A stretch of DNA of 64,000 nt from Thermoanaerobaculia bacterium (lineage in GTDB: Bacteria > Acidobacteriota > Thermoanaerobaculia > Gp7-AA8): NCBI GenBank assembly GCA_036398925.1, contig DASWOB010000050.1, forward strand, positions 79,399 to 143,398, in the 5' to 3' direction. The stretch's first letter is position 1, and every line of letters starts with the position of its first letter. Both the position numbers and the translations under genes were made by a program. Of this stretch, positions 3,370 through 58,353 are shown in pieces. The notes below the pieces were generated by a model. The model made no database searches. It had not been told where the DNA came from and saw nothing but the letters and a program-made list of their open reading frames with translations.

Positions 3370-4748
<1,379 letters not shown>

Positions 4749-6372: not shown

Positions 6373-6546
6373 GGAGCTATTCAGCTGTTCAGCTGTTCAG
6401 CTCCTCAGTTGTTCAGCGATTCAGGAGAACCTGACGGCAGCGGGGCGCGTGAGCGGGCGCGAGCTCGCCGCACATACGAACAGCGGATCCAGGGACGATG
6501 CTGCCGCCGCGTTCTCCTGAACAGCTGAGTCGCTGAACAGCTGTAA
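6373..6546. repeat. Intergenic imperfect palindrome whose arms are tandem 8-mers (CAGCTGTT)n.
   Basis: The left arm is gagctattcagctgttcagctgttcagctcctcagttgttcagcgattcaggagaacctgacggcagcgg. The right arm is ccgctgccgccgcgttctcctgaacagctgagtcgctgaacagctg. The motif is shared with 38181..38420. Confidence 0.6.
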
Positions 6547-6580
6547 ACAAAAAAAGGCCCCCCATTGCTGGGAGGCCTTC
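6546..6580 (-). terminator. Rho-independent terminator of the FecR-domain gene.
   Basis: Read on the minus strand, the stem ggggggcctt/aaggcctccc (loop agcaat) is followed by TTTTTTTGT, immediately after the stop at 6607. Confidence 0.6.
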
Positions 6581-6606: not shown

Positions 6607-8835
6607 TTAGTCGCGGTTACGGCGGATGCTGCCGCCTTCGCTCCGGTTGCCGGACGAGCCGTTGCCGGAGTTCGCGGACGGCGGCGGGGGCGGCGGAGCC
6701 GAGGGACGGCTGCCGCTGTCACCACCACCACGATTCACGCTGCCGCCGCTGTCGCGCGAGCCGCTGCCTTCGCGACGCGAGGACCCGCTGTCGCGCGAGC
6801 CGCTGCCTTCGCGCCGCGCGCTGCCGCTGTCGCCACGCGAGCCGCGTCCGCTGCCGGCGCTGCTGCTGCCGGACTCGGAGTCGCGAGGCACCACGCGCGC
6901 GCCGCCGATGCGGTCGATCACGCGGCGCGGGACATCGCTGCCGCTGGTCGACGAACCGGCCGAGCTGCCGCGCGAGCCGCTGTCGGCAGCCGGCGCGTCG
7001 CCGGTGGCCGGACGACGGCGCCAGCTGGCGTCATCGCGGGAGGAACCGGTGCCGGCAGCCGGAGCCGAAGGAGCGGGAGCGGCGGCCGGGGCATCGCCGC
7101 CGCGAACGCGATCGCGCCACGTGTTCGTGCTGCCGCCGGTGTTGCCGCCGCCGGTGTTGCCATTCAATGCCGAGTCGTCACGATCGCGGCCGCGATCCGG
7201 AATGGTGATCACGCGCGGTCCGCGGGTCGTGCCGCCGATGGGCGAGGTCGCGGGAGGAGCATCGTTGCCACGGCCGATCGGCGCAAGGCTGCCGCCGCTG
7301 CCGTCGACCGGTGCCACGTTGCCGCGTCCGATTGGAGCGAGGCTGCCGCCGCCGATGGGCGCGACACTGCCGGTGCCCGGGGCACGCGACGGGATGCCGC
7401 CGGCCACCGGAGTGGTCGTCGAGCCGCCGCCGCTGCGGCCGCGGGTGATGCGATCGCGAACCGGCGTGCTGACGTCGGGGTCGCGGCGGAAGAAGCCGGT
7501 CATGTCGGTGAGCGCACCGCCCTGAGTCGCACCCTGGCCGCTCTCGCGTCCGAGGTGCTGCCCGTCGAGGCCACGGCGCCGGATGGCGGCGGCCGGGTCA
7601 CGGACCTCCTCACGCGTGAAGCGCGCGGGGCTGCCCGAAATGGCCGCGATTCCGCCGCGCTCCCCGCGGCTGAGGCGGTTCTTCACGGCGTCGGCGGTCA
7701 GCGCGGCGCGGTCGGCGCGCAGCGTGGCGATCGTGTTCGAATCCATGAAGACCCAGGGACGCATGTCGAGCTCGCTCACCCGGACGTTGCCGTGGAAGCC
7801 AAAGCCGAAGTGATGCGTGTTCCGGTAAGGGTTGTAGGCCCAGTTGTAATACGGCCGGTAGCAATCCCAGTAGCCGGCCGGAGCCCAGCCGACGTAGCTG
7901 TCGCCGTACATCCAGTAGACCCACGCCGGCGAGTAACCGCGGCCCGGGAACCACACCCAGCCGAAGCCGGGGTCGAAGGCCCAGCGGCCGTAGTGATACG
8001 GCACCCAGCCCCATGGATCGTACGAGACCCAGGTCAGCCCGCCGTAGCGGTGCGACCAGTAGCCGTGGAAGTACGGACGCCAGCCGGCGGCGACGTACGG
8101 GCGCCAGGCGTAGCCCATGCCGCCCACGCTGACCCAGCGGCCGTGCGTGTCGAGATCGTCGGCCCAGTACGACAGCCGGCGGTCGGCGATGTAGCGGTCG
8201 TTGGAGCGGTCGAAGCGCTCGGCGCGGCGGAGGAACCACCGCTCGAAGTCGTCCGCGGCGTCGAGGGCGTCGTTCACGAGATCGTAGACACCGCGATCGT
8301 CGACCGTGGCCGTCTCACCGGCGCGCAGCCGCGTGGTGCGGTTCGGCGTGCGGATCTCGACCGCGCCGTCGAAGACGTTGACGCGATCGCGTCCTTCGCC
8401 GTCGCTCTCGACGGAGTAGACCGCCTCGTGCGCCGCGACGTAGCTCGCGTGCTTCGTATCGAGGCGGACGTAGTCGCGTCCGAGCTCGGTGCGGTAGATC
8501 GCGACCTTACCGTAGCTCAGCTCGGCGACGGTCTGGTCCGCATTGCCCTCGTAACTGTCGAGGATCGAGTGGAGCTTGACCGCCGTCGCGCGATCGATGC
8601 CGATCGTGTTGCCGTCGGAGAGGTGGAGCTCCGCACGACCGCGGCGGCTCGTGACCACAGCATCTCCCGGGTAGACCGGGAGGTTGACGCGGGCTTCGAT
8701 CTCGCGGCCGTCATCGCCCTGGCGCACGACCGTACCGCCGTCGTCGTACGAGAAGAACGATTGGTGCCGCTCGACCGCCTGCATCGGAATGGCGGCGAGT
8801 GTGACAAGAAGAGTGAGTAGGACCGCTCGTTTCAT
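6607..8835 (-). CDS. Secreted FecR-domain protein with a Trp/Tyr/Gly-rich repeat region and a C-terminal Gly/Ser/Arg-rich low-complexity tail.
   Basis: An AGGAGA RBS then the ATG at 8835, and a signal peptide (MKRAVLLTLLVTLAAIPMQA). A FecR-like N-terminal region. A central W-rich block (GYAWRPYVAAGWRPYFHGYWSHRYGGLTWVSYDPWGWVPYHYGRWAFDPGFGWVWFPGRGYSPAWVYWMYG). C-terminal repeats (SLAPIGRGNxAP x3; RREGSGSRDSGxS x2), with matching 36-42 bp DNA tandem repeats at about 6730-6850 and 7270-7380. Confidence 0.7.
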   Translation of the reverse strand: MKRAVLLTLLVTLAAIPMQAVERHQSFFSYDDGGTVVRQGDDGREIEARVNLPVYPGDAVVTSRRGRAELHLSDGNTIGIDRATAVKLHSILDSYEGNADQTVAELSYGKVAIYRTELGRDYVRLDTKHASYVAAHEAVYSVESDGEGRDRVNVFDGAVEIRTPNRTTRLRAGETATVDDRGVYDLVNDALDAADDFERWFLRRAERFDRSNDRYIADRRLSYWADDLDTHGRWVSVGGMGYAWRPYVAAGWRPYFHGYWSHRYGGLTWVSYDPWGWVPYHYGRWAFDPGFGWVWFPGRGYSPAWVYWMYGDSYVGWAPAGYWDCYRPYYNWAYNPYRNTHHFGFGFHGNVRVSELDMRPWVFMDSNTIATLRADRAALTADAVKNRLSRGERGGIAAISGSPARFTREEVRDPAAAIRRRGLDGQHLGRESGQGATQGGALTDMTGFFRRDPDVSTPVRDRITRGRSGGGSTTTPVAGGIPSRAPGTGSVAPIGGGSLAPIGRGNVAPVDGSGGSLAPIGRGNDAPPATSPIGGTTRGPRVITIPDRGRDRDDSALNGNTGGGNTGGSTNTWRDRVRGGDAPAAAPAPSAPAAGTGSSRDDASWRRRPATGDAPAADSGSRGSSAGSSTSGSDVPRRVIDRIGGARVVPRDSESGSSSAGSGRGSRGDSGSARREGSGSRDSGSSRREGSGSRDSGGSVNRGGGDSGSRPSAPPPPPPSANSGNGSSGNRSEGGSIRRNRD

Positions 8836-9000
8836 GGGTTTTCTCCTGCAACCGGACGCTTCCGAGTGCGGCCGGCATGCCACGGTACCGCAGAGTATTC
8901 CTGCTTTCGCATCAACGACTTAGCTGCAGCTGAAGCGACGACTGACGCGCGCTCTGTCCTCGATCGGTGAAACCGCGTCCCCTGCAAAGTACGGAACACT

Positions 9001-9231
9001 AAGCAGAATGCTCTCACTCCACCCACGGATGAGGAGACGACGGGGGGCCTCCGGCGGCCGGGGCCACAGCCCCGGACCCCGTTGGTTGGCCTAGCCTCCG
9101 CGACACTCTGTCGCGAGATACGAGTCTATGTCGCGGAGGCTAGGCCAACCAGCGGGTCCGGGCCCGCGGCCCGGCCGCCGGAGGCCTCCGGTCGTTCCCT
9201 CATCCGTGGGTCAACTGCGTGCATTCTGCTC
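9001..9231. repeat. Near-perfect inverted repeat of about 230 bp with roughly 100-bp arms, centred near 9116.
   Basis: The left arm (...agcagaatgc..acccacggatgaggagacgacggggggcctccggcggccggggccacagccccggaccccgttggttggcctagcctccgcgaca) is complemented by the right arm (tgtcgcggaggctaggccaaccagcgggtccgggcccgcggcccggccgccggaggcctccggtcgttccctcatccgtgggt..gcattctgct). It sits between the stop of the phosphoesterase gene and the start of the FecR-domain gene. Confidence 0.7.
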
Positions 9232-9970
9232 AGGTTCCGTTCGAGAGCCGCTGCGCCAGGATCGGTGGAAGCCCGGCCTTCAGGATCGACGTCTGCGTCT
9301 TCTTGAGGTCGTACTCCACGCGGAAGAACTGCACCGTGCGTTTGTCGGAATCGAGAATCACAAACGAGGCGAGAGGATTCCGGTCGCGTGGCTGGCCGAC
9401 CGATCCGGGGTTGATCAGGTAGCGCAATCCCGGCTCGAGCTTCAGCGTCGCTTCGCCACGAATGGAGAAGCCGCGCACGTTGTGCTCGTCATCGACCGAG
9501 AAGATCACCGGCAGGTGGGTGTGGCCGTAGAGGATGATCGGCGCTTTGTAGAGGGCCATCACCTGCCCGGCGTGGTGCACGTTGAAGACGTACTCGTCCT
9601 CGTCGTACGGCGAGCCGTGGCAGAGCATCACCCCTTCGGTCTCGGTGGGGCCGCACGGCAGGTCGCGCAGGAAGCGCCGGTTGGGAGCACTGAGGTGATC
9701 GCGGGTCCAGAGCGCGGCCGCCTTCGCCGCGTGATTGAAGCCGTTCGCGTCGCTGATCCCGGAGGCCACGCGGTCATGGTTGCCGCGGATGTAGAGCTTG
9801 CGCCCGCGCAGGGTGCGCATGATGTCGAGGATCTGGTTCGGCTGCGCGCCGTAACCGACGAAGTCGCCGAGGCAGATCACCGAGTCGAACTTCTTGCGGC
9901 GGACGTGATTCATCACCGCGCGCACGGCGGCCTCGTTCGCGTGCAGGTCGCTGACGACGAGTGCCCTCAT
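9230..9970 (-). CDS. Calcineurin-like metallophosphoesterase.
   Basis: The ATG at 9970 overlaps the aroK stop (ATGA). Motifs MRALVVSDLHAN, ICLGDFVGYG, GNHD and GHTHLP are present. Confidence 0.8.
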   Translation of the reverse strand: MRALVVSDLHANEAAVRAVMNHVRRKKFDSVICLGDFVGYGAQPNQILDIMRTLRGRKLYIRGNHDRVASGISDANGFNHAAKAAALWTRDHLSAPNRRFLRDLPCGPTETEGVMLCHGSPYDEDEYVFNVHHAGQVMALYKAPIILYGHTHLPVIFSVDDEHNVRGFSIRGEATLKLEPGLRYLINPGSVGQPRDRNPLASFVILDSDKRTVQFFRVEYDLKKTQTSILKAGLPPILAQRLSNGT

Positions 9971-10541: not shown

Positions 10542-11876
<1,335 letters not shown>

Positions 11877-11886
11877 GAGCCCGCGA

Positions 11887-12399
<513 letters not shown>

Positions 12400-12412
12400 C
12401 TGTCGATCCCTT

Positions 12413-14078: not shown

Positions 14079-16130
14079 CTACGGCGTCGTGGCCGTACCG
14101 GTCACGCACACCTCGATGAGCGGCTGGGCCGGATCATTCGTGGTGAACGTGAAGGTCGCGTTCCGTGTACCGGCGCCGCCGGTGGGATTGAACGTGACGG
14201 TATACGAGGCGGTCGTCCCCGGAGGCACCGTGCGCTGCGTGGTCGGGGAGATCACGAACTCCGCCGAGCCGGTGCGGGCCGGATCGGCACCGATCACCAG
14301 GTTCTGGGAGCCGACCGGTGCATTGTTGCGGAACGTGACCGTGGCGGTGCCGGTGGCCGGGTCGGTCACCGAGACAGAGCCCGCGGACGCGCAGCCGCTG
14401 GCCGGGGCTGTGACGGCCGCCTGCGGCGGCGCCTGAACGCAGTTGTTCGGACCCGGCGGGTTGACGGTGACGGTGACGGCGTCCGTGCAGAGCGTGGTGG
14501 TGTTGTTGAACGTGACCAGCGTTTCGACCGGTCCGAGACGGGTGCCCGGAACCCCCGGACTGACTTCGCAGGCAACGGTCGGGAAGGTGAAGCCGGTCGT
14601 CGGCAGAGGCACGCTGAACTGCTGCGGGCCGGTACCGCTCGTGAGCGTGCTCGGCGTCGGGATGATGGTCCGGCCGTTCACATTGAAGCGGATGACGCTG
14701 GAGCCCAGCGGACCAACTCCCGGATCCTGAACCGTGACCGTGAGGATGCTTCCCGGAGTGGCGGTGCCGGTCACGCTCGTGATCTGCACCGGGACCGGGA
14801 TATAGGTGAACACCGCCTCGTTGGGTGCATCGCCCCAGATCTCGGAGTCGCCATTGGCGGTGTTGTTGATGATGATCTGCCCGGTAGCGCCGATGCACGA
14901 GGAGGGCGAGGGGCCGGTGCGGGCCAGGATCTGCGTGCCGCTCACGCGCAGCACCTGCGCGCGAATCGGTCCCGCGGTCGTGCCGATGACCACTTCCAGC
15001 GGGTCGTCGAAGCCGATGCCGTCGATGACGATATCGGTGCCGCCGAGCGAAGAGCCGACCAGCGGCCGGACATTCGTGATCTGCATGTCATTGACGTAGC
15101 GGAAGAGCGCTTCCGACGTCACGCGCGTGTTGGAGTTGATGTTCACGATCGTCACGTCGATCGGACCGGTGACCGTTCCGGAGCCGTTCGGGTTCGTCTC
15201 CCGTCCCGGCGGCGCCTGGACGATGATCTGGTCGAACCGGACGTCGATGACCCGTGCTTCGGCCGCGCCGAAGAACACCTGCACCGGGGCCTGGAAGCCG
15301 TCGCCGAAGATGGTGATGCGTGTCCCGCCGTCGATCGGGCCCGAGCTCGGGCTGGCCGTCACGATGCGCGGGGTGAGGACTTCGGCCCGGAAGATGAACG
15401 GGGCGGCCGCTTCCACGCGCTGCTCGTTCGCCGTACCGGCTTCGGTGATGACCGTGACCTCGGCTTCGAGCTGCTGGCCGGCACCGAGGTCGACGCCGGG
15501 AGTGATCACTTCGATGACAGTCGGCGAGACCGACACCACGAACGCTTCACGCGGCGTGGCGCCGCCGGTGTTGAACAGCACCCGCACCGGCGCGCGGAAG
15601 TTCGTGCCGACGATGCGGATCACTTCCCCGCCGGCCGGACGGCCGACTGCCGGACTGACCGAGGTGATGGTGGGGGCGGTGCTGGGCGGCGGATCGGTGG
15701 TGGGACGCGTGCGGAAGGTGACGGCGGCCTGACGGCTGATGTTGGCCACCGTGGCCGTGACCGTGGCCGTACCGGCCGTGCCCGACGTCAGCGTGACCGT
15801 GGCCACGCCGTTGGTGGTGGTGCGGATCGTGGACTGCGCCTCGACGTCGGTGAAGAGGCCGAGCGTGGTCTGGAACTCGACCGCGGTGCCGTTCGGAACG
15901 GGCTGACCGTTCTCCGTCACCGTGGCCGTGATCACGCTCGTCGAGTCGACCAGCGGATTCGCACTCGACGTCGTCAGCGTCACCGTCACGCCGGTCGGCG
16001 TCGGATTCGGATTCGGATTCGGCCCCGGCCCGGGAGACGGAGCCGTCGGCGTGTCGCCTTTGCATGCGGCGAAAACGAACAGGATCGCCAGGAGCGCGAG
16101 CCATTGTTTCCGCGGTCTGAATGTATTCAT
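14079..16130 (-). CDS. Large secreted lipoprotein with Big_2/Ig-like and at least three IPT/TIG domains.
   Basis: The ATG at 16130 is in frame. Lipoprotein signal (MNTFRPRKQWLALLAILFVFAACKGD). Repeated ITSVSPAVGRPAGGEVIRIVGTNF / IVTASPSSGPIDGGTRITIFGDGF / ITNVRPLVGSSLGGTDIVIDGIGF TIG signatures. Thr/Pro-rich linkers. Confidence 0.75.
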   Translation of the reverse strand: MNTFRPRKQWLALLAILFVFAACKGDTPTAPSPGPGPNPNPNPTPTGVTVTLTTSSANPLVDSTSVITATVTENGQPVPNGTAVEFQTTLGLFTDVEAQSTIRTTTNGVATVTLTSGTAGTATVTATVANISRQAAVTFRTRPTTDPPPSTAPTITSVSPAVGRPAGGEVIRIVGTNFRAPVRVLFNTGGATPREAFVVSVSPTVIEVITPGVDLGAGQQLEAEVTVITEAGTANEQRVEAAAPFIFRAEVLTPRIVTASPSSGPIDGGTRITIFGDGFQAPVQVFFGAAEARVIDVRFDQIIVQAPPGRETNPNGSGTVTGPIDVTIVNINSNTRVTSEALFRYVNDMQITNVRPLVGSSLGGTDIVIDGIGFDDPLEVVIGTTAGPIRAQVLRVSGTQILARTGPSPSSCIGATGQIIINNTANGDSEIWGDAPNEAVFTYIPVPVQITSVTGTATPGSILTVTVQDPGVGPLGSSVIRFNVNGRTIIPTPSTLTSGTGPQQFSVPLPTTGFTFPTVACEVSPGVPGTRLGPVETLVTFNNTTTLCTDAVTVTVNPPGPNNCVQAPPQAAVTAPASGCASAGSVSVTDPATGTATVTFRNNAPVGSQNLVIGADPARTGSAEFVISPTTQRTVPPGTTASYTVTFNPTGGAGTRNATFTFTTNDPAQPLIEVCVTGTATTP

Positions 16131-23774: not shown

Positions 23775-23846
23775 GATGCAGCGTGAGACGGCGATGAAGC
23801 CATTCCGGTTCTGCTCGCCAGTTCCCGCAATCCCCGATTCGAGCAG

Positions 23847-24207
23847 ACGGTCCGCGACCTCACGCGCGATATCCATGGATACCAGGCACACGGTCCGCGA
23901 CGTCACGCACGATATCCATGGATATCAAGCACACGGTCCGCGACCTCACGCACGATATCCATGGATATCACGCACACGGTCCGCGACCTCACGCACGATA
24001 TCCATGGATATCACGCACACGATCCGCGACCTCACGCACGATATCCATGGATATCACGCACGCGGTCCGCGACCTCACGCGTGATGGTATGGATAGCACC
24101 GGTGATGTCCATGGATATCACGCGAGCGCTCCGTGGACCCCGCGTTTGCATCCATGGATTCCAGCCGCAAAGTCCGCGAGCAGCGAAACGGAATCCATGG
24201 ATTCCGT
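23847..24207. repeat. Tandem array of 43-bp direct repeats (5 near-perfect and about 3-4 degenerate copies). Each carries the perfect 16-bp palindrome GATATCCATGGATATC.
   Basis: The palindrome starts at 23868, 23911, 23954, 23997 and 24040 (period 43). The spacer is acgcacacggtccgcgacctcacgcac. Degenerate copies run to about 24207. The array sits 73 bp upstream of the XRE gene start and 24 bp from the stop of the sugar dehydrogenase gene. Confidence 0.85.
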
Positions 24208-28078: not shown

Positions 28079-28325
28079 TGGACTGCGGTGGCAACGCCGC
28101 CGCTCTTCCACACGCGGCGGAGCCGCGCCAAACGGGGAGCGGGCGTCCCGCCGGCGAGCGCGTGGCATCCTGCCGCGCGCCGAAGAGCATGGTGCACGGG
28201 CGATCTTTGCCACCGGGCGAGACGCCCGGTGGTCGCGGGCGGGAGGCCCGGCGGGACGCCCGCTCCCCGGCGGGGCCGCTCCGCGGCCATGAGAGAGCGG
28301 CGGCGACGGCCGCCGCAGTCCAGAT
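28079..28325. mobile_element. MITE-like palindromic element, long copy A, with terminal inverted repeats of about 28 bp.
   Basis: The left end is ggactgcggtggcaacgccgccgctctt. The right end is its near-exact reverse complement, aagagcggcggcgacggccgccgcagtcc(agat). The interior is itself a nested inverted repeat. It lies between the kefB-like start and the stop of the HicB-like gene. Confidence 0.5.
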
Positions 28326-33101: not shown

Positions 33102-36100
33102 ATGACCATCGAACGCGGCACCTACGAAGTCATCCGCGACCGCCTTTCGGCGCAGGGGAAAACCCTCGCTGAAAAGGCGGCGCGCCTCAACGCACGCCGG
33201 ATCGAGCTGTTCGGCGGGGCGGAGATGGCCCTCCTCGGCAGCGATCGCATTCGCACCGAGAACAACTGCGTGCCGCGCGACATCGCGGAAGCGGGCAGCC
33301 TCCTGCTGTTCGGCTACAACGTCTTCATCGGCCTCAAGACCGAGACGCAGGTGTCGGATGTCTTCTCGCTGCACCGCGTCGACAACTTCGCGGCGGTGCC
33401 GGCCGATGCGCCGGAGAACTTCCTCCGCGATCCGAAGTTCGCTCACGACTTCCGCGAGCTCTATCAGTACTACCGCAACTCGCGGCTGCTGCAACTGCGG
33501 CGCGTCGAGTCGAAGCTGCTGGCGGTCTTCCAGACCGGCGAGAAGCTGACCGACCTGCGCGTCTTCCGCTGGCAGGTGGCGGTCGACGGCAGCGTCACCT
33601 ACATCGACAACCGCGGCGAGCGCGATCACGTCTACCCGCCGCGCCACGACTTCGAGTGGATTGCCACCTCGCGCGAGCACCACGTGAGCGGCAAGCATCC
33701 GCACTGCTCGATCGAGGACAGCCTCTTCGTCGAGACCATCGGCGGCGACGTCACGTTCAAGATCGAGGACAACACCTCGACGGGCCGCGGCATCTTCAGC
33801 GAGCCGGTCGACGATCCCGATCAGTCGCTCGACGACGCGCAGATTCACTACGCGGTCATCGGCACGCTGATCCTGGTGAAGCTCCTCCCCTATCGCGAGA
33901 AGAGCTGGCGCTATTACGTCTTCAACAAACGGACGAAGAGCGTGCGGCGCATCGACGCCATCGGCGCCGCCTGCATCCAGCTTCCCGAGGATCACGGCAT
34001 CATCTTCCCGGGCGGCTACTACCTCCGCACCGGCGACGCCAGGATCTTCGAGGAGCACGATCCGAACGGGATGGAGTTCCTGCGCGCGGTCCGCGCGCCG
34101 AACGGCGAGGACGTGCTCTACGCGTTCCACCGCCGCGATGAAGGGCGGACGCTGCTTTTCTCGTACAACCTCATTCGCAAAGAGGTCGTCAACCCGCTCA
34201 GCTGCCACGGCTACTCGCTGTTTGCCGACGGCAAGATGATCATCTTCTCCGCGACCAGCAACGAGCCGACCCGCGTCCATCCGATGCAGATCTGGCAGAC
34301 GCCGTTCGTCAGCGACGACCACCTGGCGAAGACGCCGCAGCCAAATACGTTTCTCGGCAAGGTCGGCAACCGCGATCTCGTGCGTGGTCTCTCCAGCGCG
34401 CTCTCGATCTGCCGCCTCGTCGACGAACAGACCCCGTCGCGCGCGACCTACGAAGACATGGTCGCGGCCACCGCGCGGGTCATCGACGCGTATCACTGGA
34501 TCGGTCACGCCGAAGCCGAAGACCTCCTCTCCACGATCAAAGAAGTCCGCGCCACCGCGGAGCTGATCATCGATGAGTTCGAGAAGGTGGAGGCGCTGCG
34601 CGCGCAGGCCTCGAAGGCGGTCGGCGACGTCGAGCAGTCGCTCAACGAAAAGCGTCCCGAGCCGGCATCCATCGACGACTACGTCGCGCAGCTCGGCGAG
34701 CTCCGTTCGAAGCAGGGGCACATCATTTCGCTGCGCGAGCTGCGTTACGTCGATCGCGCGAAGCTCGACGCGCTCGAAGCGGGCGTCGTGGCGCGCTTCG
34801 GCGAACTGTCGCAGGCCACGGTGCAGTTCCTCCTCGACGAGAAGGCGCTGGCGCCGTTCGCCGAAAAGACCACCTACATCGAAACGCGCATCGCCAACGT
34901 CCAGAAGACCACCGACGCCGAGGCGCTCGTGCGCGAAGTCGAAGGGGTGGTCGGGTCGCTGAATCTCCTGACCGAGATCATCGGCTCGCTGCAGATCGAA
35001 GACCCGTCGGTGCGCATCCGGATCCTCGAGCGGATCTCGCAGCTGATGTCGGGCCTCAACCGCGTCCGCGCGCTCGTCGCGCAGCGGCGCAAGGAGCTGC
35101 TCGGCAAGGAACGCGTCGCCGAGTTCGCGGTGCAGTTCTCCCTCTTCACCCAGACCGTCTCCAGTTCCGTCTCCGGCACCGACACGCCGGAGCGCTGCGA
35201 TACCGAGCTGTCGAAGCTGATGCTGCAGCTCGAAGAGCTGGAGACCCGCTTCAGCGAGTTCGACGACTTTGTGGCGCAGCTCGCGGCCAAACGCGAAGAG
35301 GTGTACGACGCCCTCACCGCGCGCAAGCAGTCGCTGCTCGAACAGCGGCAGCGCCGGGCGGAGCAGCTGCAGCAGGCCGCGACGCGCATTCTCCAGGGGA
35401 TCACCCGCCGTGCCGGCACGCTCGGCAACGTCGACGCGCTGAACGCGTTCTTTGCCTCCGACCCGATGGTGGCCAAGCTCCGCTCGACGTCCGAGAAACT
35501 GCGCGAGCTGGGCGACATCGTGCGCGCCGACGAGATCGACGGCAAGCTCAAGACCGCGCGCGACGAAGCCGCACGCTCGCTGCGCGACCGGAACGAGCTG
35601 TTCGAGGAAGGGTCGAACGTGGTCCGCTTCGGCGAGCACCGCTTCAGCGTCAACACGCAGCCGGTCGAGCTGACCATCGTTCCGCGCGAAGAGCGCCCCC
35701 ACCTCCACATCACCGGCACCGGCTTCTTCGAGCCGATCGAAGAAGAGCTGGCCTATCCGAATCAGGAGCTGGTCTCCGAGACCGAAGAGGTCTACCGCGC
35801 CGAGTACCTCGCCTACGTGGCCCGCAACGGCGACGTGCGCGAAGCGATGGCGGCGCGCTACGACGAAGGCTACGAGCGCGGCGTGCACGATCACGACGCG
35901 CAGCTCATCGCCGAGAAACTGCGCGGCATGATGTCGACCGCCGGCCTCCTGCGCTACACGCCGAACGCGCGCGCCGCCGCCACGCTCTTCTGGGCCTTCT
36001 TCCCGGATGAATCGCTCAAAGCGCAGTGGTCCGCGCACGCGAAGGCCCTTCTGGACTGCGGTGGCAACGCCACCGCTCTCGCCCAGGAACTGCAGCAAGC

Positions 36101-38180: not shown

Positions 38181-38420
38181 CGGTGAGCCTTTGAGCTGTT
38201 GAGCTGTTGAGCTGTTGAGCGAGAAGTGTGAATGGAACCAGAGTCAACAACTCACTTCCTCGCTCAATAGCTCAATAGCTCAACAGCTAAAAAGCTCGAA
38301 CCCGGAGCTGTTCAGCTGTTCAGGCGAGGAAGTGAATTGTTGATTCTGGTTTTATCCACACTTCATCGCTCAACAGCTCAACACCTGAACAGCTGAACAG
38401 CTGAATAGCTGAATAGCTCA
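38181..38420. repeat. Two adjacent imperfect palindromes built from tandem 8-mers (GAGCTGTT / CAGCTGTT / TCAATAGC).
   Basis: gagctgttgagctgttgagctgttgagcgagaagtg...cacttcctcgctcaatagctcaatagctcaacagct, and cagctgttcagctgttcaggcgaggaagtg...cacttcatcgctcaacagctcaacacctgaacagctgaacagctg. The region is AT-richer than the surrounding sequence. Confidence 0.7.
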
Positions 38421-38451
38421 ACAGCTCGAAGGCGAAGCCCCCACGACCCGG

Positions 38452-39825: not shown

Positions 39826-40122
39826 ATGGAGATCGCGCACGACGGGAAGCAAAATTTGCACGACGGGAAGAGCCGCGCTCACGCCGGGAAGAGCGTTTTC
39901 CACGCGGGGAAGAAAAAGTTGCTCGACGGGAAGGGCGTGGCTCACGACGGGAAGAGCGGCGCTCTCGATCGGAAGGACTTTTTTCACGGCGGCAAGAGCG
40001 GCGGCCACGATCGGAAGAGCGTTTCTCACGAGCGCATCAGAATTTTCCTCGAGCGCGAGAGCCGCCGTCACGACCGGAGCAGCGTCCTTCATCGAATTGT
40101 GACGCTCGCTCATCAGCGTTGA
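39826..40122 (+). CDS. Possible small protein made of HDGKSxx heptad repeats, encoded by a 21-bp tandem DNA array. The coding status is uncertain.
   Basis: About 12 imperfect 21-bp repeats (cacgacgggaagagcg.....) between 39835 and 40095. The plus frame has about 77% GC3, versus about 64% for the antisense ALPVVxx frame. The stop overlaps the next ORF. Confidence 0.3.
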   Translation: MEIAHDGKQNLHDGKSRAHAGKSVFHAGKKKLLDGKGVAHDGKSGALDRKDFFHGGKSGGHDRKSVSHERIRIFLERESRRHDRSSVLHRIVTLAHQR

Positions 40123-43690: not shown

Positions 43691-43803
43691 GGATGGAGGA
43701 TTGGAGGATTGAGGATTGAGGAATCCCCCCTCCCCGCGTTCGCGCCGCTCATCCTCTCATCCGAACACCCCTTCCTCAATCCTCAATTCTCAATCCTCAA
43801 TCC
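43691..43803. repeat. Hairpin with arms of tandem heptamers (GGATTGA)n / (CCTCAAT)n, directly upstream of relA/spoT.
   Basis: ggatggaggattggaggattgaggattgaggaat ... cttcctcaatcctcaattctcaatcctcaatcc. It begins 12 bp from the relA start codon. Confidence 0.7.
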
Positions 43804-47370: not shown

Positions 47371-47482
47371 AGGCTCCCCGCATCCCCGAGGAGCGCAGCG
47401 ACGTGAGGATCAACCAAGGCGCGGCGCTGCTGACGGCCGTCGGCGTCCGCGGATGAGAGCCCACACCACACCCGGGCAGCAT

Positions 47483-47583
47483 CTGGACTGCGGCAGCAAC
47501 GCTGCCGCTCTTTCCACGCCGCGGAGCGGCGCGCGGCTCCGCCGCGTATGTCATAGCGGCGGCGCTGCCACCGCAGTCCAGAT
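47483..47583. mobile_element. MITE-like element, short copy B (about 101 bp).
   Basis: atctggactgcggcagcaacgctgccgctct ... atagcggcggcgctgccaccgcagtccagat. The core is palindromic (cgccgcggagcggcgcgcggctccgccgcg). Confidence 0.55.
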
Positions 47584-47602
47584 TGTTCGCGCGTGAAATG
47601 GG

Positions 47603-49751: not shown

Positions 49752-49849
49752 CAGTTCCTCGGTTCCTCGGGTTCCTCGGAGTTCCTTGGCAGGAACCTGA
49801 GACTTGCCGAGGAACCGAGGAACTCCGAGGAACCGAGGAACCGCTTTTT
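49752..49849 (+). terminator. Repeat-built hairpin terminator of (GTTCCTCGG)n / (CCGAGGAAC)n, followed by TTTTT.
   Basis: gttcctcggttcctcgggttcctcggagttcc...ggaactccgaggaaccgaggaaccgc TTTTTC. It lies between two convergent stops (49749 on plus, 49850 on minus). Confidence 0.6.
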
Positions 49850-50640: not shown

Positions 50641-50745
50641 GAAGGGCCGAGGGCCGAGGGCTGAGGGCCGAGGGGGCGCAGGGCGAGTGCGGGGCAGCCG
50701 CGCCGCGGCTCCCTCGGCCCTCGACCCTCGGCCCTTGGCCCTCGC
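50641..50745. repeat. Intercistronic hairpin between sdhA and sdhB with arms of tandem (GGGCCGAG)n.
   Basis: gaagggccgagggccgagggctgagggccgagggg ... ccctcggccctcgaccctcggcccttggccctcgc. It ends at the sdhA stop and lies 25 bp upstream of the sdhB start. No U-tract follows. Confidence 0.7.
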
Positions 50746-53504: not shown

Positions 53505-53646
53505 AGCGAGCGATGACCGATGAACGATGAGCGATGAACGATGAACGATCTGCCGGTTCCCCGTTCATCGCTCATCTCTCATCGCTCATCTCTCATCGCT
53601 CATCTCTCATCGCTCATCTCTCATCTCTCATCGCTCATCGTTCGGT
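53505..53646. repeat. Asymmetric hairpin of tandem heptamers (CGATGAA/CGATGAG)n versus (TCATCGC/TCATCTC)n in the divergent region between sdhC and the ABC gene.
   Basis: The left arm has about 5 units (53505-53550). The right arm has about 11 units (53563-53646). Confidence 0.7.
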
Positions 53647-56343: not shown

Positions 56344-56942
56344 TCCGGATCGTGATCGCGGAAGATCAGGCGATGGTGCTCGGTGCGCTGGCCGCGCTCC
56401 TGGAGATCGAATCGGATCTCGAGGTAATCGGCCGCGCGCGCGACGGCGAGGAGGCGCTCGCGCTCTGCCGCGACAAACGGCCCGACGTGCTGCTGACCGA
56501 CATCGAGATGCCGAAGATGACCGGCCTCGAGCTGGCCACCTGCGTGCGGCGCGAAGCGCTGGGGACGCGGGTGATCATCCTGACCACCTTCGCGCGCGGC
56601 GGTTATCTACGCCGCGCGCTGGAATCGGGCGCTTCCGGCTATCTGCTGAAAGACTCCCCGGCGGAACATCTGGCGAACGCCGTGCGCCGCGTCCACGCGG
56701 GCGGCCGGGCCGTCGATCCGGAACTGGCAGCCGAGGCGTGGAGCGATCCCGATCCGCTGACCGATCGCGAACGGCAGGTCTTGCGGCTGGCAGGCGACGG
56801 ATTGACGAGCGCCGACATTGCCGGGACGCTGCACCTGTCCGAGGGGACGGTGCGCAATTACCTCTCGGAGGCGATCAATAAGCTGGGGGCCGGGAATCGG
56901 GTGGAGGCGTCGCGGATCGCTCGGGAGAAGGGGTGGTTGTGA
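56340..56942 (+). CDS. NarL/FixJ-family response regulator (REC + LuxR HTH).
   Basis: (M)IRIVIAEDQAMV...DVLLTDIEMP and a C-terminal LuxR HTH (LTDRERQVLRLAGDGLTSADIAGTLHLSEGTVRNYL). The TTG start overlaps the kinase stop. Confidence 0.9.
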   Translation: MIRIVIAEDQAMVLGALAALLEIESDLEVIGRARDGEEALALCRDKRPDVLLTDIEMPKMTGLELATCVRREALGTRVIILTTFARGGYLRRALESGASGYLLKDSPAEHLANAVRRVHAGGRAVDPELAAEAWSDPDPLTDRERQVLRLAGDGLTSADIAGTLHLSEGTVRNYLSEAINKLGAGNRVEASRIAREKGWL

Positions 56943-56944
56943 TG

Positions 56945-57046
56945 ATCTGGACCGCGGTGGCAGCGCCGCCGCTCTGAACTCGGCGCGGAGCGCCGCGCGG
57001 CTCCGCCGCGTGTTGATAGCGGCGGCGTTGCCGCCGCAGTCCAGAT
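56945..57046. mobile_element. MITE-like element, short copy C, wedged between two convergent stop codons.
   Basis: atctggaccgcggtggcagcgccgccgctct ... atagcggcggcgttgccgccgcagtccagat. It starts 3 nt after the response-regulator stop, and its last base is the first base of the 5'-nucleotidase stop. Confidence 0.55.
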
Positions 57047-58353
57047 CAGCGCAGCGCTTTTTGGAGCTCGGTGCGTACGCGCAATCCGCTCTTTTCTTTG
57101 TCGCACTGAAAGACGTCGCGGTAGGCCACGTTCGCCAGATAGTCGGTGGTCGCCACGCGCACGCGATCGCCGCTCGCGCTGCCGGCGATGAACGATTCGG
57201 AGTCGCTCCCCTTCCGCTTTGCACTCTCCTCGACGACGCGCTGCCATTGGGCGCCGGTCATCGTACAGACGACGATCTCGTTGTCGTACGGCAGGGCGGC
57301 GCGCAACTGCTCGGCGGTGATCGGGCCGGCGGGTAAGGCGTGGCGGAAGCTGCTGACGGTCGACAGGGCGACGTCGGCTTTCGTGGCGCTGCGCATGACG
57401 TCGAGCGTCCGCGCGGCGAGCCGCGGGACGTCCAGCGGCTCGCGCAATTTCGCGACGCGCTGGAAGAGCGGGGCGTAGGCGGGATCGCGCTCGAGCTGGC
57501 GTTGCAGTTTGCGGACACGCTGCGCGACCTCGCGATCGGCGCGCATGCGGCGGGTCACCGGCACGAGCTCGCCGCGGACGCGCGTCACCTTGCGATCGTC
57601 GACCGTCAGCTCGACGCGGGCGATGTTCTCGAGGTACTGGCCGGGCGAGATGAACCAGGTCTCCGTCCCGGCGATCCGCGTCAGCTCGCGCCGGATGTGA
57701 CTGTGCGTACCGAAAATGAGGTCGATCCCGGGGACGGCCCGGGCCAGCGCTTCGTCTTCCTCGGCGTGCTGGTGGCCGATCATCACGATCGCGTCGACCC
57801 CTTCCTTCTGCAGCTTCTGCACGCTCTCGCGCGCGGCCTGCACCGGATCGAGGAACTCCAGCCCCTCGACCTTCACCAGTGACGGGAAGTCCTTGCCCGC
57901 CACGGCGAAGACACCGACCAGCGTGCCTCCGATGTCGAAGATCACGTACTGCTGGAAGCCGCGCGTGTTCGCGCTGAGGATCGGATACGAGAGCTGCTCT
58001 TTGCACTGCCGGTAGGCGGCCAGTCCGTAGTCGGCGTCGTGATTGCCGAACGCCATCGCGCTGACGATTTCGTTGAGCCACGGCCACTCCACGCAGCCGT
58101 ACTTGTCCGACCACGCGGGCGAGCCTTTGTTGATCATGTCTCCGCCGCTGAAGACGAGCGCGCCGGCCCGCTTCTGCTCGCGGAGGTAACCGACCGCCCG
58201 CGCGATGCCGCCGCGCTCTCCCTCTTCCCCCGCGTAGAACGGCTGCGCGTGTGAGTGATAGTCGGAGAAATGGAGCAGCGTGACGGTGGTCTCGCCGTAG
58301 AGCGGAATGGCGAGCGGAATGGCGAGCAGCAGGAGCAGCAGACAGCGGCGCAT
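57046..58353 (-). CDS. Bifunctional metallophosphatase/5'-nucleotidase (UshA-like).
   Basis: Signal peptide. HFSDYH, GGDMINKG and GNHD metallophosphatase motifs. A C-terminal 5'-nucleotidase substrate domain. Confidence 0.85.
   Translation of the reverse strand: MRRCLLLLLLAIPLAIPLYGETTVTLLHFSDYHSHAQPFYAGEEGERGGIARAVGYLREQKRAGALVFSGGDMINKGSPAWSDKYGCVEWPWLNEIVSAMAFGNHDADYGLAAYRQCKEQLSYPILSANTRGFQQYVIFDIGGTLVGVFAVAGKDFPSLVKVEGLEFLDPVQAARESVQKLQKEGVDAIVMIGHQHAEEDEALARAVPGIDLIFGTHSHIRRELTRIAGTETWFISPGQYLENIARVELTVDDRKVTRVRGELVPVTRRMRADREVAQRVRKLQRQLERDPAYAPLFQRVAKLREPLDVPRLAARTLDVMRSATKADVALSTVSSFRHALPAGPITAEQLRAALPYDNEIVVCTMTGAQWQRVVEESAKRKGSDSESFIAGSASGDRVRVATTDYLANVAYRDVFQCDKEKSGLRVRTELQKALR

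Follow-up and report, generated by a model that had tools for sequence, protein, structure and literature searches.

A 64,000-nucleotide stretch of a Thermoanaerobaculia genome (phylum Acidobacteriota; GenBank assembly GCA_036398925.1, contig DASWOB010000050.1, forward-strand positions 79,399 to 143,398), hereafter the window, contains seven long hairpins distributed across six loci (Table 1). In every hairpin, a 7- or 8-nt unit is repeated head to tail along one arm, and its complement is repeated in the same way along the other. Tandem Repeats Finder (TRF) assigns 2.2-10.9 copies to the individual arrays with 80-100% matches at all loci, and an inverted-repeat scan delimits arms of 35-47 nt that are 70-90% complementary. 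A first-pass annotation of the same DNA had reported a recurring class of such hairpins, and all six of its loci were found at the coordinates that it gave. Its focal locus, placed at 38181-38420, does comprise two hairpins (2a and 2b), but the second extends to 38427. The unit at 50641-50745, which had been read as an 8-mer, is the heptamer AGGGCCG, and this is the only unit in the window that contains a run of three G residues.

All hairpins of the window are intergenic, and hairpins 2a, 4 and 5 begin 1-6 nt from a stop codon. As described in the first-pass annotation, the sites are varied: some hairpins follow a stop codon, others separate convergent genes, and others lie within the sdh operon or in the 5´ region of divergent genes. 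A position downstream of a transcription unit is found for loci 2, 4 and 5; locus 1 comes after a separate terminator, and loci 3 and 6 lie between divergent genes. The centre of locus 1 is non-periodic and forms inner stems of its own (inverted repeats I14/I15). Hairpin 2a corresponds to an inverted repeat with 39-nt arms and 90% complementarity (I7). Hairpins 2a and 2b are inverted copies of each other, with centres (38223-38263 and 38324-38364) that are 88% reverse-complementary over 41 nt (I4). Together they lie between the convergent DUF3686 ATPase and 138-aa genes, with one hairpin per gene end in an orientation that is equal relative to its own gene. Between locus 6 and the sdh genes, a sigma70-like promoter match was observed at 53475-53448 (minus strand), which is the sole good match for the sdh operon.

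Table 1. Coordinates, repeat units, gene settings and predicted RNA folds of the paired-array hairpins in the window and of two related hairpins further along the same contig.
Hairpin	Extent	Arrays (TRF)	Unit, arms and centre	Gene setting	RNA fold (kcal/mol; z; strand)
1	6375..6543	6375-6424 and 6517-6543	Unit AGCTGTTC; 5´ arm (AGCTGTTC)n, 6375-6424; 3´ arm (GAACAGCT)n, 6517-6543	Co-directional minus-strand neighbours; downstream of the canonical hairpin-plus-T7 terminator of a FecR/DUF6600 gene (6548-6580, minus) and upstream of the start of an MscS/cNMP-binding gene	-87.5; -5.8; minus
2a	38184..38297	38191-38220 and 38262-38297	Unit TTGAGCTG; arms (TTGAGCTG)n, 38184-38223, and (TAGCTCAA)n, 38259-38297; centre 38224-38258	Begins 3 nt past the stop codon of the 1705-aa DUF3686 ATPase gene	-69.7; -11.3; plus
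2b	38306..38427	38306-38323 and 38368-38427	Unit AGCTGTTC; short 5´ arm (AGCTGTTC)2.2; long 3´ arm (GCTCAACA/GAACAGCT)7.5; centre 38324-38364	24 nt separate its end from the stop codon of the convergent 138-aa gene	-53.5; -5.2; minus
3		43691-43722 and 43773-43803	Unit GGATTGA; complement arm (TCAATCC)n	Divergent region between relA/spoT (start 43678, minus) and a 121-aa gene (43926, plus); hairpin edge 13 nt from the relA/spoT start codon	-52.8; -3.4; minus
4		49754-49786 and 49807-49843	Unit GTTCCTCG(G); other arm (CCGAGGAA)n	Entire spacer of the convergent DUF4142 gene (stop 49749) and sdhB (stop 49850)	-74.9; -12.1
5		50643-50674 and 50711-50744	Unit AGGGCCG; complement arm (CGGCCCT)n	Spacer from the sdhA stop (50746) to the sdhB start (50614), minus strand, inside the sdh operon	-90.6; -8.1; minus
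6	53508..53643	53511-53549 and 53565-53640	Unit CGATGAA; 5´ arm (CGATGAA/CGATGAG)5.6; 3´ arm (TCATCGC TCATCTC)n, 10.9 units	Divergent region of the sdh cytochrome-b gene (start 53369, minus) and an ABC ATPase gene (start 53709, plus)	-56.1; -5.7
CGATGAA family, outside the window	L169 4942-5046 and 5618-5724		CGATGAA family	Same contig, window-equivalent positions of about 66.1 and 66.8 kb	

The number of arrays and their pairing both exceed chance. For each of the ten period-7/8 arrays in the window, an inverted periodic partner lies no more than 250 nt away, compared with a mean of 0.04 such arrays and no pairs in 50 dinucleotide-preserving shuffles of the window. A purpose-written seeded detector for periodic, inverted-paired arrays returned exactly the same six loci in the window and none besides. 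Under a stricter scan, the other short-period arrays of the window are four hexamers, all of which lie within long open reading frames (ORFs). Predicted RNA fold energies of the window hairpins lie between -53 and -91 kcal/mol; relative to dinucleotide shuffles, their z-scores are -3.4 to -12.

The detector was also applied to loci around sdhB homologues, 80 from genomes and 80 from metagenomes (labelled L004, L085 and so on; approximately 1.95 Mb in total, drawn with sdhB as the single sampling gene). Compared with a permuted-unit null, the pairing is confined to units of 7 and 8 nt. In the window and the genome loci, 37 of 73 period-7 arrays (null 0.5) and 13 of 31 period-8 arrays (null 0.05) are inverted-paired, and none of the 102 arrays with periods of 9-12 is. 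The metagenome loci give 19 of 39 at period 7 (null 0.75), 0 of 5 at period 8 and 0 of 59 at periods 9-12. Matches at periods 5 and 6 are at the noise level in GC-rich DNA and were dropped. Several other readings of the window hairpins were rejected: CRISPR by the lack of a spacer-repeat layout, iterons or an origin by the excessive number of different units, attC or XerCD-like sites by the lack of a consensus, and coding repeats by periods that are not multiples of 3 and by the intergenic position of the arrays.

The hairpin design was found in Thermoanaerobaculia, in other Acidobacteriota, in Gemmatimonadota and in one contig binned as Roseiflexaceae. When all periods of 5-12 are counted in the genome set, paired arrays number 13 in the 64 kb of the window, 21 in 230 kb of Thermoanaerobaculia, 11 in 315 kb of Gemmatimonadota and 3 in the 12 kb of the Roseiflexaceae-binned contig, and they are almost absent from Acidimicrobiia (1 in 238 kb). 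The suggestion that the class may be lineage-specific was therefore too narrow, given its presence in Acidobacteriota, Gemmatimonadota and the Roseiflexaceae-binned contig and the paired heptamers described for Xanthomonas in passages of PMC4692102. The class is genuine, is specific to 7-8-nt units and extends past one lineage. Two other arrangements of heptamers were observed in the related loci. An acidimicrobial locus (L052) carries many lone heptamer arrays without an inverted partner (3441-3498, 7851-7913, 8334-8386 and 11381-11436), often adjacent in twos with unrelated units, which is an arrangement unlike the hairpins studied here. L010 contains a 250-nt composite element (12149-12400) in which successive 5´ heptamer families (ACCGGGC, AACCGGA, GGAATCG and AAACAGG), including GGGAATC-like units, are followed only by a 3´ arm that is complementary and short.

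Three assemblies of one population, whose reads are possibly shared, allow a comparison at strain level. The window aligns to contig Ga0334964_000026 (151 kb) of Joint Genome Institute (JGI) metagenome 3300034146 from approximately position 79,471, and the same population is present in European Nucleotide Archive (ENA) assembly ERZ27253109 (k141_393384, 201 kb, megahit) and in Logan contigs of SRR10955009. Beyond this population, the closest genomes by SdhB (approximately 80% identity) are Thermoanaerobaculia metagenome-assembled genomes (MAGs), and SdhB scans of genomes and metagenomes returned no relative above 82% protein identity. Over the approximately 56 kb compared, the window and the JGI contig differ only once, by 21 nt (three units, TCATCGC TCATCTC TCATCTC) that are absent from the long arm of locus 6 in the window. 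The longer form is present in both the JGI and ENA contigs, so that the two arms contain 5.6 and 10.9 units in the window and 5.6 and 13.9 units in the other two assemblies. Loci 1-5, including the entire locus 1 hairpin, do not differ by a single base between window and JGI contig; the ENA contig is likewise identical at loci 2, 4 and 5, with hairpin 2a among them.

These comparisons bear on the possibility that the hairpins are palindromic or collapsed-repeat chimeras produced by short-read assembly. The Logan contigs break within the arrays (one contig of the same population begins within the 3´ arm of locus 3, at 43774), the unit counts at locus 6 disagree between assemblies, and no carrier has a long-read-type assembler name, the contigs that are so named (contig_NNNN, chromosome) having no period-7/8 hairpin. 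Conversely, the hairpins of loci 1-5 are the same in the assemblies in which they could be compared, including a megahit contig for loci 2, 4 and 5, so that one assembler alone did not create them. The hairpins lie well inside long contigs, exactly between intact genes, with arms that match imperfectly (84-90%) and centres that are not palindromic. The design recurs in dozens of MAGs from different projects and assemblers, and passages of PMC4692102 describe it in finished Xanthomonas genomes. An assembly origin of the class is thus exceedingly improbable.

A second variable array lies elsewhere in the window. When the ENA and JGI contigs were compared over two segments, the differences were a 43-bp tandem array at 23843-24080 and one base. 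This array has 5.5 copies with 94% identity, each with the 16-bp perfect palindrome GATATCCATGGATATC, and overlaps the start of an HTH_3/XRE-type regulator gene. Compared with the JGI and window forms, the ENA form is 86 nt (two units) longer, and the regulator is called at 133 aa in ENA instead of 123 aa. It looks like an operator array or a variable N-terminus.

Slipped-strand expansion, which the first-pass annotation had offered on the basis of the 5-versus-11 asymmetry at 53505-53646, is supported. The asymmetry is real, and the three-unit difference at locus 6 is consistent with slippage without proving it. Unequal arms also occur elsewhere; although unit counts from short-read assemblies are possibly underestimates, the extremes in full units are 20 versus 2, 12 versus 5 and 5 versus 11, and the GAGTGAC hairpin of L006 has arms of 21 and 3.6 units. 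Slippage alone is insufficient, however, because the two arms share complementary variant units. Among the 18 hairpins with single-mismatch variants in both arms, ten have a complementary variant common to both, compared with 1.6 expected. In L048 the variant sits at the exact mirror position; in L004 and the 66.1-kb hairpin, among others, it is shifted by 1-2 units. Copying between the arms, or selection for pairing, is therefore also at work.

The hairpins also differ between relatives at orthologous sites. The sdhA-sdhB spacer, which is 0-34 nt long in 12 relatives, is extended to 131 nt in the window and to 111 nt in L004, where the hairpin unit is GTGCTGA. In an UPGMA (unweighted pair group method with arithmetic mean) tree of SdhB, L004 clusters apart from the window, together with L007, whose spacer is 15 nt long; the simplest reading is therefore that a hairpin was gained twice independently. 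At the sdhB/DUF4142 convergent spacer, some hairpin was observed in every examined relative that keeps the DUF4142 gene. It is an ordinary GC-rich hairpin in L004, L005, L007 and L085 and a periodic hairpin in the window, L006 and L086, each with a different unit. L085 and L086 are 92.5% identical in DNA sequence, yet this spacer is wholly replaced between them. Between sucC and sucD, L013, L112 and L152 carry a (GTTCACR)n hairpin whose unit is shared, despite a DNA identity of only 69-70% in the flanking genes, and whose centres are unrelated; three other genomes have no spacer at this site. Turnover is thus quick at some sites, and a unit is long-lived at another. The conservation of GTTCACR suggests that the unit is under selection or is seeded anew from a family spread over the genome.

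Two further observations were made in these relatives. In L112, L152 and L013 (at 5492, 5083 and 11987, respectively), the sucC ORF enters the first array units, so that the repeat supplies the final codons and the stop. L085 and L086 also differ by presence/absence insertions at 2022-2137 and 5116-5265 in L086 and at 3085-3196 in L085. Two of these are MITE-like copies (miniature inverted-repeat transposable elements) with the terminal repeats CCCGAGCG(A/C)AGTCGAGG, and one is a non-periodic palindrome with perfect 37-nt arms. Palindromic insertions are thus actively gained or lost in this clade.

A role in RNA can be weighed against these data. In this explanation, the hairpins are selected RNA stem-loops that provide termination without a U-tract, a block to 3´ exonucleases or RNase III sites through which the relative expression of adjacent cistrons is set, and the periodicity would be a side effect. 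Many hairpins start 0-25 nt from a stop codon, a hairpin accompanies DUF4142 in every examined relative that keeps this gene, and the sucC-sucD hairpin is kept in three diverged genomes. Complementary variants in both arms are the expectation under pairing selection, and the stems of 20-45 bp predicted by the folds (with loops of up to approximately 100 nt) are the right size for RNase III. Canonical terminator matches between 36 and 56 kb number 14 compared with 11.7 in shuffles, which is the chance level. The class nevertheless departs from such elements in several respects. Two of the six window loci, and approximately 8 of 37 hairpins overall, lie between divergent genes; by a crude gene call (GC3-based in the related loci), the contexts are approximately 17 co-directional, 8 convergent and 8 divergent. 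Locus 1 is located behind a canonical terminator, and locus 6 is upstream of the only good sdh promoter match. Among the 17 co-directional contexts, the transcribed strand folds better in nine and worse in eight, so no G-U bias is apparent, and the shared variants are often out of register. Because sdhA-sdhB and sucC-sucD have no spacer in most relatives, the hairpin is dispensable at these sites.

Termination in particular can be compared with the canonical signal. A Rho-independent terminator usually has a stem of 5-15 bp. The likeness consists of a stem-loop just past the stop codon and of locus 4, which carries a T5 run (TTTTT, plus strand) in a convergent spacer where relatives carry ordinary hairpins. 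In contrast, the stems and loops are far longer here, some copies lie in promoter regions, and 64 of 74 hairpin ends have no T-tract. With T-tracts at the other ten ends, the class does not consist of ordinary U-tract terminators. Within the window, locus 4 is the only one of the seven hairpins with a T-run, as the first-pass annotation had observed, and its view that the class resembles neither canonical terminators nor repetitive extragenic palindromic (REP) elements is supported. Its suggestion of a general terminator or RNA-stability function is not borne out, given the divergent loci 3 and 6, the terminator ahead of locus 1, the scarcity of T-tracts and the lack of strand bias. Rfam covariance models at gathering scores gave no match in the whole window, and a tRNA scan returned nothing. 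A role as a 3´-end barrier at transcribed hairpins would be compatible with these tests, which do not support a class-wide terminator or regulatory-RNA role, and we consider selected RNA function unlikely as the explanation of the class.

Families of units recur within genomes. AGCTGTT[C/G] is common to loci 1 and 2, a CCGAGG core is common to loci 4 and 5, and CGATGAA of locus 6 recurs in two hairpins located 12.6 and 13.3 kb further on the same contig. Over the approximately 78 kb of the source contig, eight of nine hairpins belong to three families (AGCTGTTS, CGATGAA and CCGAGG-type). The two distal CGATGAA hairpins have homologous centres in opposite orientation and bracket a gene pair encoding an antitoxin and a ParE toxin. 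Similarly, hsp20 in L139 is bracketed by two mirror-arranged hairpins of one family (14193-14345 and 15053-15149), and sdhB in the window is bracketed by hairpins with related units. When the centre of 2a was searched for in all the DNA analysed, the sole match was its own inverted copy in 2b.

The statement in the first-pass annotation that the unit differs from locus to locus is therefore only partly correct: there are 31 distinct units in 38 hairpins (detector-called elements of 47-257 nt), but the same family turns up much more often inside one genome than in two different ones. Units that differ by at most one mismatch make up 6 of 41 within-genome pairs compared with 14 of 625 (2.2%) between genomes, for which our own chance estimate is approximately 1.9%. 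In the search for a motif common to all units, TGAG was found in 7 of 31 (uncorrected p 0.002), which is not above the maximum statistic of shuffled units. Since between-genome similarity is also near chance, a single superfamily or binding motif is unsupported.

The recurrence of families is one argument for dispersed non-autonomous mobile elements of the REP/REPIN/MITE type, whose terminal repeats would be heptamer arrays. Each unit family would depend for its movement in trans on a nuclease or transposase that is encoded at another site and recognises the structure or the unit. This explanation is favoured by the three families of the source contig, by whole-element copies with homologous centres (2a/2b and the ParE-flanking pair), by the complete spacer replacement between L085 and L086 together with the palindromic insertions that these genomes carry, and by the multi-copy GTTCACR family, which is conserved over deep divergence. 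Other features argue against it. Direct repeats of 4-9 nt indicative of a target-site duplication were found at none of the 37 hairpins analysed. Most same-unit pairs have unrelated centres (the pairs in L004 and L007 and the sucC-sucD orthologues of L112, L152 and L013), the number of distinct units is high, and the frequent strong inequality of the arms is unusual for functional terminal repeats. The homologous-centre copies are only 0.1-0.7 kb apart, which equally fits local duplication. No transposase, RAYT (REP-associated tyrosine transposase) or reverse transcriptase was present in the Pfam lists of called genes, which cover approximately 56 kb of the window. Movement in trans is accordingly regarded as a serious but somewhat doubtful alternative.

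The known families of this type differ from the hairpins in construction. REP elements are 20-40 nt long, have one conserved sequence per family, often with a GTAG/CGTC tag, and are linked to a RAYT transposase. REPs, BIMEs (bacterial interspersed mosaic elements) and REPINs resemble the present hairpins as intergenic imperfect palindromes at 3´ ends or in operons, sometimes in inverted pairs, and REPs can stabilise upstream mRNA. Compared with these elements, the hairpins described here are 70-250 nt long, internally periodic and of many sequences, with no RAYT in the Pfam lists. MITEs share terminal inverted repeats around a short centre, small size, intergenic position and the presence of several copies, whereas the hairpins are devoid of target-site duplications, have mostly unconserved centres and carry tandem arrays of unequal length as arms.

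A palindrome family of the REP/MITE type, which is separate from the hairpins, was observed in the window at 47469-47595 and 56938-57053 and possibly also at 28080-28313. Its members have ends of the form ATCTGGACTGCGG...GCCGCCGCT and complement with a GC-rich centre, and a Logan contig ends inside the first copy, at 47510. Further occurrences of the 9-mer GGACTGCGG are at 28080 and 28313, on opposite strands, and a single one is at 36053.

A function at the level of DNA was also considered, in which the heptamers are protein-binding sites (iteron- or operator-like) or contingency loci whose unit number alters promoter spacing and causes phase variation. Loci 3 and 6 lie in divergent promoter regions, with the edge of locus 3 close to the relA start codon, and the unit number of locus 6 differs between assemblies. 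A precedent exists in Haemophilus, where heptanucleotide repeats in promoters or 5´ untranslated regions drive phase variation according to passages of PMC12721329. However, the 64-kb window alone contains five or more different units, and therefore no single binding protein fits. Most copies follow stop codons or lie between convergent genes, where spacing is irrelevant, and phase variation needs no inverted partner, yet every 7/8-nt array of the window is paired. This explanation is very improbable.

The explanation that we favour, with moderate confidence, is that the hairpins are self-templating palindromic long microsatellites, that is, quasi-palindromes of 70-250 bp in which 7/8-nt arrays surround a non-repetitive centre of approximately 10-100 nt. 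In a first step, intrastrand template switching or fold-back synthesis would provide a short stem-loop or a lone heptamer array with its mirror copy, an inference that the shared variants and the inverted duplicates of whole hairpins support. Replication slippage would subsequently add or remove whole units in each arm, as supported by the unequal arms, the shifted variants and the three-unit difference between assemblies. Templating from arm to arm, or selection for pairing, would maintain the complementarity, in keeping with the complementary variants observed. Finally, whole hairpins would be copied nearby in inverted orientation, as in the two pairs with homologous centres, and such local inverted copying would thereby result in a few unit families per genome. 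The hairpins would accumulate where a strong stem-loop is harmless, in intergenic DNA and often against a stop codon, and transcribed copies would fold into stems of 20-45 bp. At convergent gene ends, where periodic hairpins stand in place of the ordinary GC-rich hairpins of relatives, they probably act as a 3´-end barrier or terminator. A dedicated role is improbable for the copies in divergent promoter regions and for those behind a canonical terminator.

Several observations weigh against self-templating microsatellites. The restriction to 7 and 8 nt is left unexplained. The GTTCACR unit is kept at sucC-sucD despite the divergence of its flanks, and neutral slippage should not preserve a unit for so long. 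The same heptamers occur in distant taxa: GGGAATC is present in Xanthomonas and in a 159-nt hairpin of the Gemmatimonadota locus L048, and CTGAGGA is present in L020 and L082. In L007, same-unit copies share the order of variant units and not the centre, which local duplication does not simply predict. The 21-nt difference at locus 6 may be an assembler effect, and the JGI, ENA and Logan assemblies may share reads. The 7-8-nt restriction, the conservation of GTTCACR and the distant recurrence of heptamers therefore keep alive an alternative in which a trans-acting factor mobilises or homogenises the repeats. In its most far-reaching form, to which only a small probability is given, the paired arrays would be a phylum-spanning self-propagating class with dedicated machinery, such as a hairpin- or unit-specific nuclease, polymerase or recombinase, that seeds, copies and homogenises the families. 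If true, such machinery would account for the exclusive use of 7-8-nt units, for the dominance of families within genomes and for the conservation of a unit at one junction while the flanking genes diverge to 70% identity. It would also account for the inverted copies that bracket the ParE toxin-antitoxin pair, hsp20 and sdhB.

Heptamer arrays are also known from cyanobacteria, whose STRR elements (short, tandemly repeated repetitive DNA) form several heptamer families per genome in tandem arrays in intergenic DNA. STRR units reportedly lengthen both strands of helix P12 of RNase P RNA, a construction that would match the heptamer arms described here. Compared with the hairpins described here, STRRs belong to a different phylum with low-GC genomes and consist of different units. 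The G-rich arrays of Nostoc are rarely paired (Rehm et al., PMC4692102, in the relevant passages).

The closest counterpart is found in Xanthomonas. Passages of Rehm et al. (2015, PMC4692102) report approximately 185 GGGAATC arrays per genome in X. campestris and X. axonopodis, with approximately 2-26 units and G-quadruplex potential. Each genome has 70-75 array pairs that lie on opposite strands, are convergent and are capable of forming stem-loops or cruciforms. These arrays are intergenic, often abut or overlap stop codons, and vary widely in length and sequence between related species (PMC4692102). The passages thus describe the same tandem heptamers, inverted pairing, stop-codon proximity and variation among relatives as observed here. 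Certain discrepancies are also apparent. Xanthomonas uses essentially one G-rich unit, whereas at least five units including 8-mers are present here and GGGAATC is absent from the window. Roughly three quarters of the arrays are paired in Xanthomonas, compared with every 7/8-nt array of the window. The host phylum also differs, and mirrored variants, unit families and a pairing mechanism are not mentioned in the passages of PMC4692102 considered here.

Long simple sequence repeats (SSRs) with a period of 7 nt are over-represented in prokaryotes, with 8 nt as a minority, in intergenic DNA and across phyla (Mrazek et al. 2007, as related in passages of PMC4679880 and PMC4692102). Slippage was proposed as their origin, and 7 nt was suggested to be the DNA segment that is held by the polymerase (Mrazek et al. 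2007, as related in the same passages). These SSRs are direct arrays, and an obligatory inverted partner or hairpin is not ascribed to that survey in the passages of PMC4679880 and PMC4692102. The TAACTGA heptamers of Beggiatoaceae and cyanobacteria are intergenic and comprise 2-6 units, with a patchy phylogeny that suggests horizontal spread (MacGregor 2015, PMC4679880). In contrast to the present hairpins, they have one fixed unit in direct orientation (169 sets versus a single inverted one) and are located just upstream of start codons (PMC4679880).

The Thermoanaerobaculia hairpins are thus a further example of a barely studied type of paired-heptamer repeat, with the same architecture as in Xanthomonas, and not a new kind of element. 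As far as we have found, the multiplicity of units, the strict restriction of pairing to 7/8 nt, the mirrored variants and the occurrence in Acidobacteriota and Gemmatimonadota are new. The over-representation of heptamers has been known since 2007 without a tested explanation, and hairpin pairing has been mentioned merely in passing. The paired form is dominant in some high-GC soil lineages, is limited to 7-8 nt, carries mirrored variants and turns over within approximately 8% DNA divergence. Paired arrays therefore offer testable handles on the origin of the repeats, either by slippage plus template switching or by a mobilising activity. In practical terms, the hairpins break or distort short-read assemblies and create long spacers within operons such as sdhA-sdhB and sucC-sucD, and annotation could mistake them for terminators or regulatory RNAs.

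Two other repeat-rich regions were observed in the window. At 8999-9233, a nested inverted repeat has outer arms of 64 nt (84% complementary and 107 nt apart) that enclose an inner hairpin at 9078-9156 with 28-nt arms (96%). At 39834-40031, degenerate 21/42/63-nt tandem repeats (CACGACGGGAAGAGCG...) are present, for which two public assemblies call different genes on opposite strands, and this region may be non-coding.

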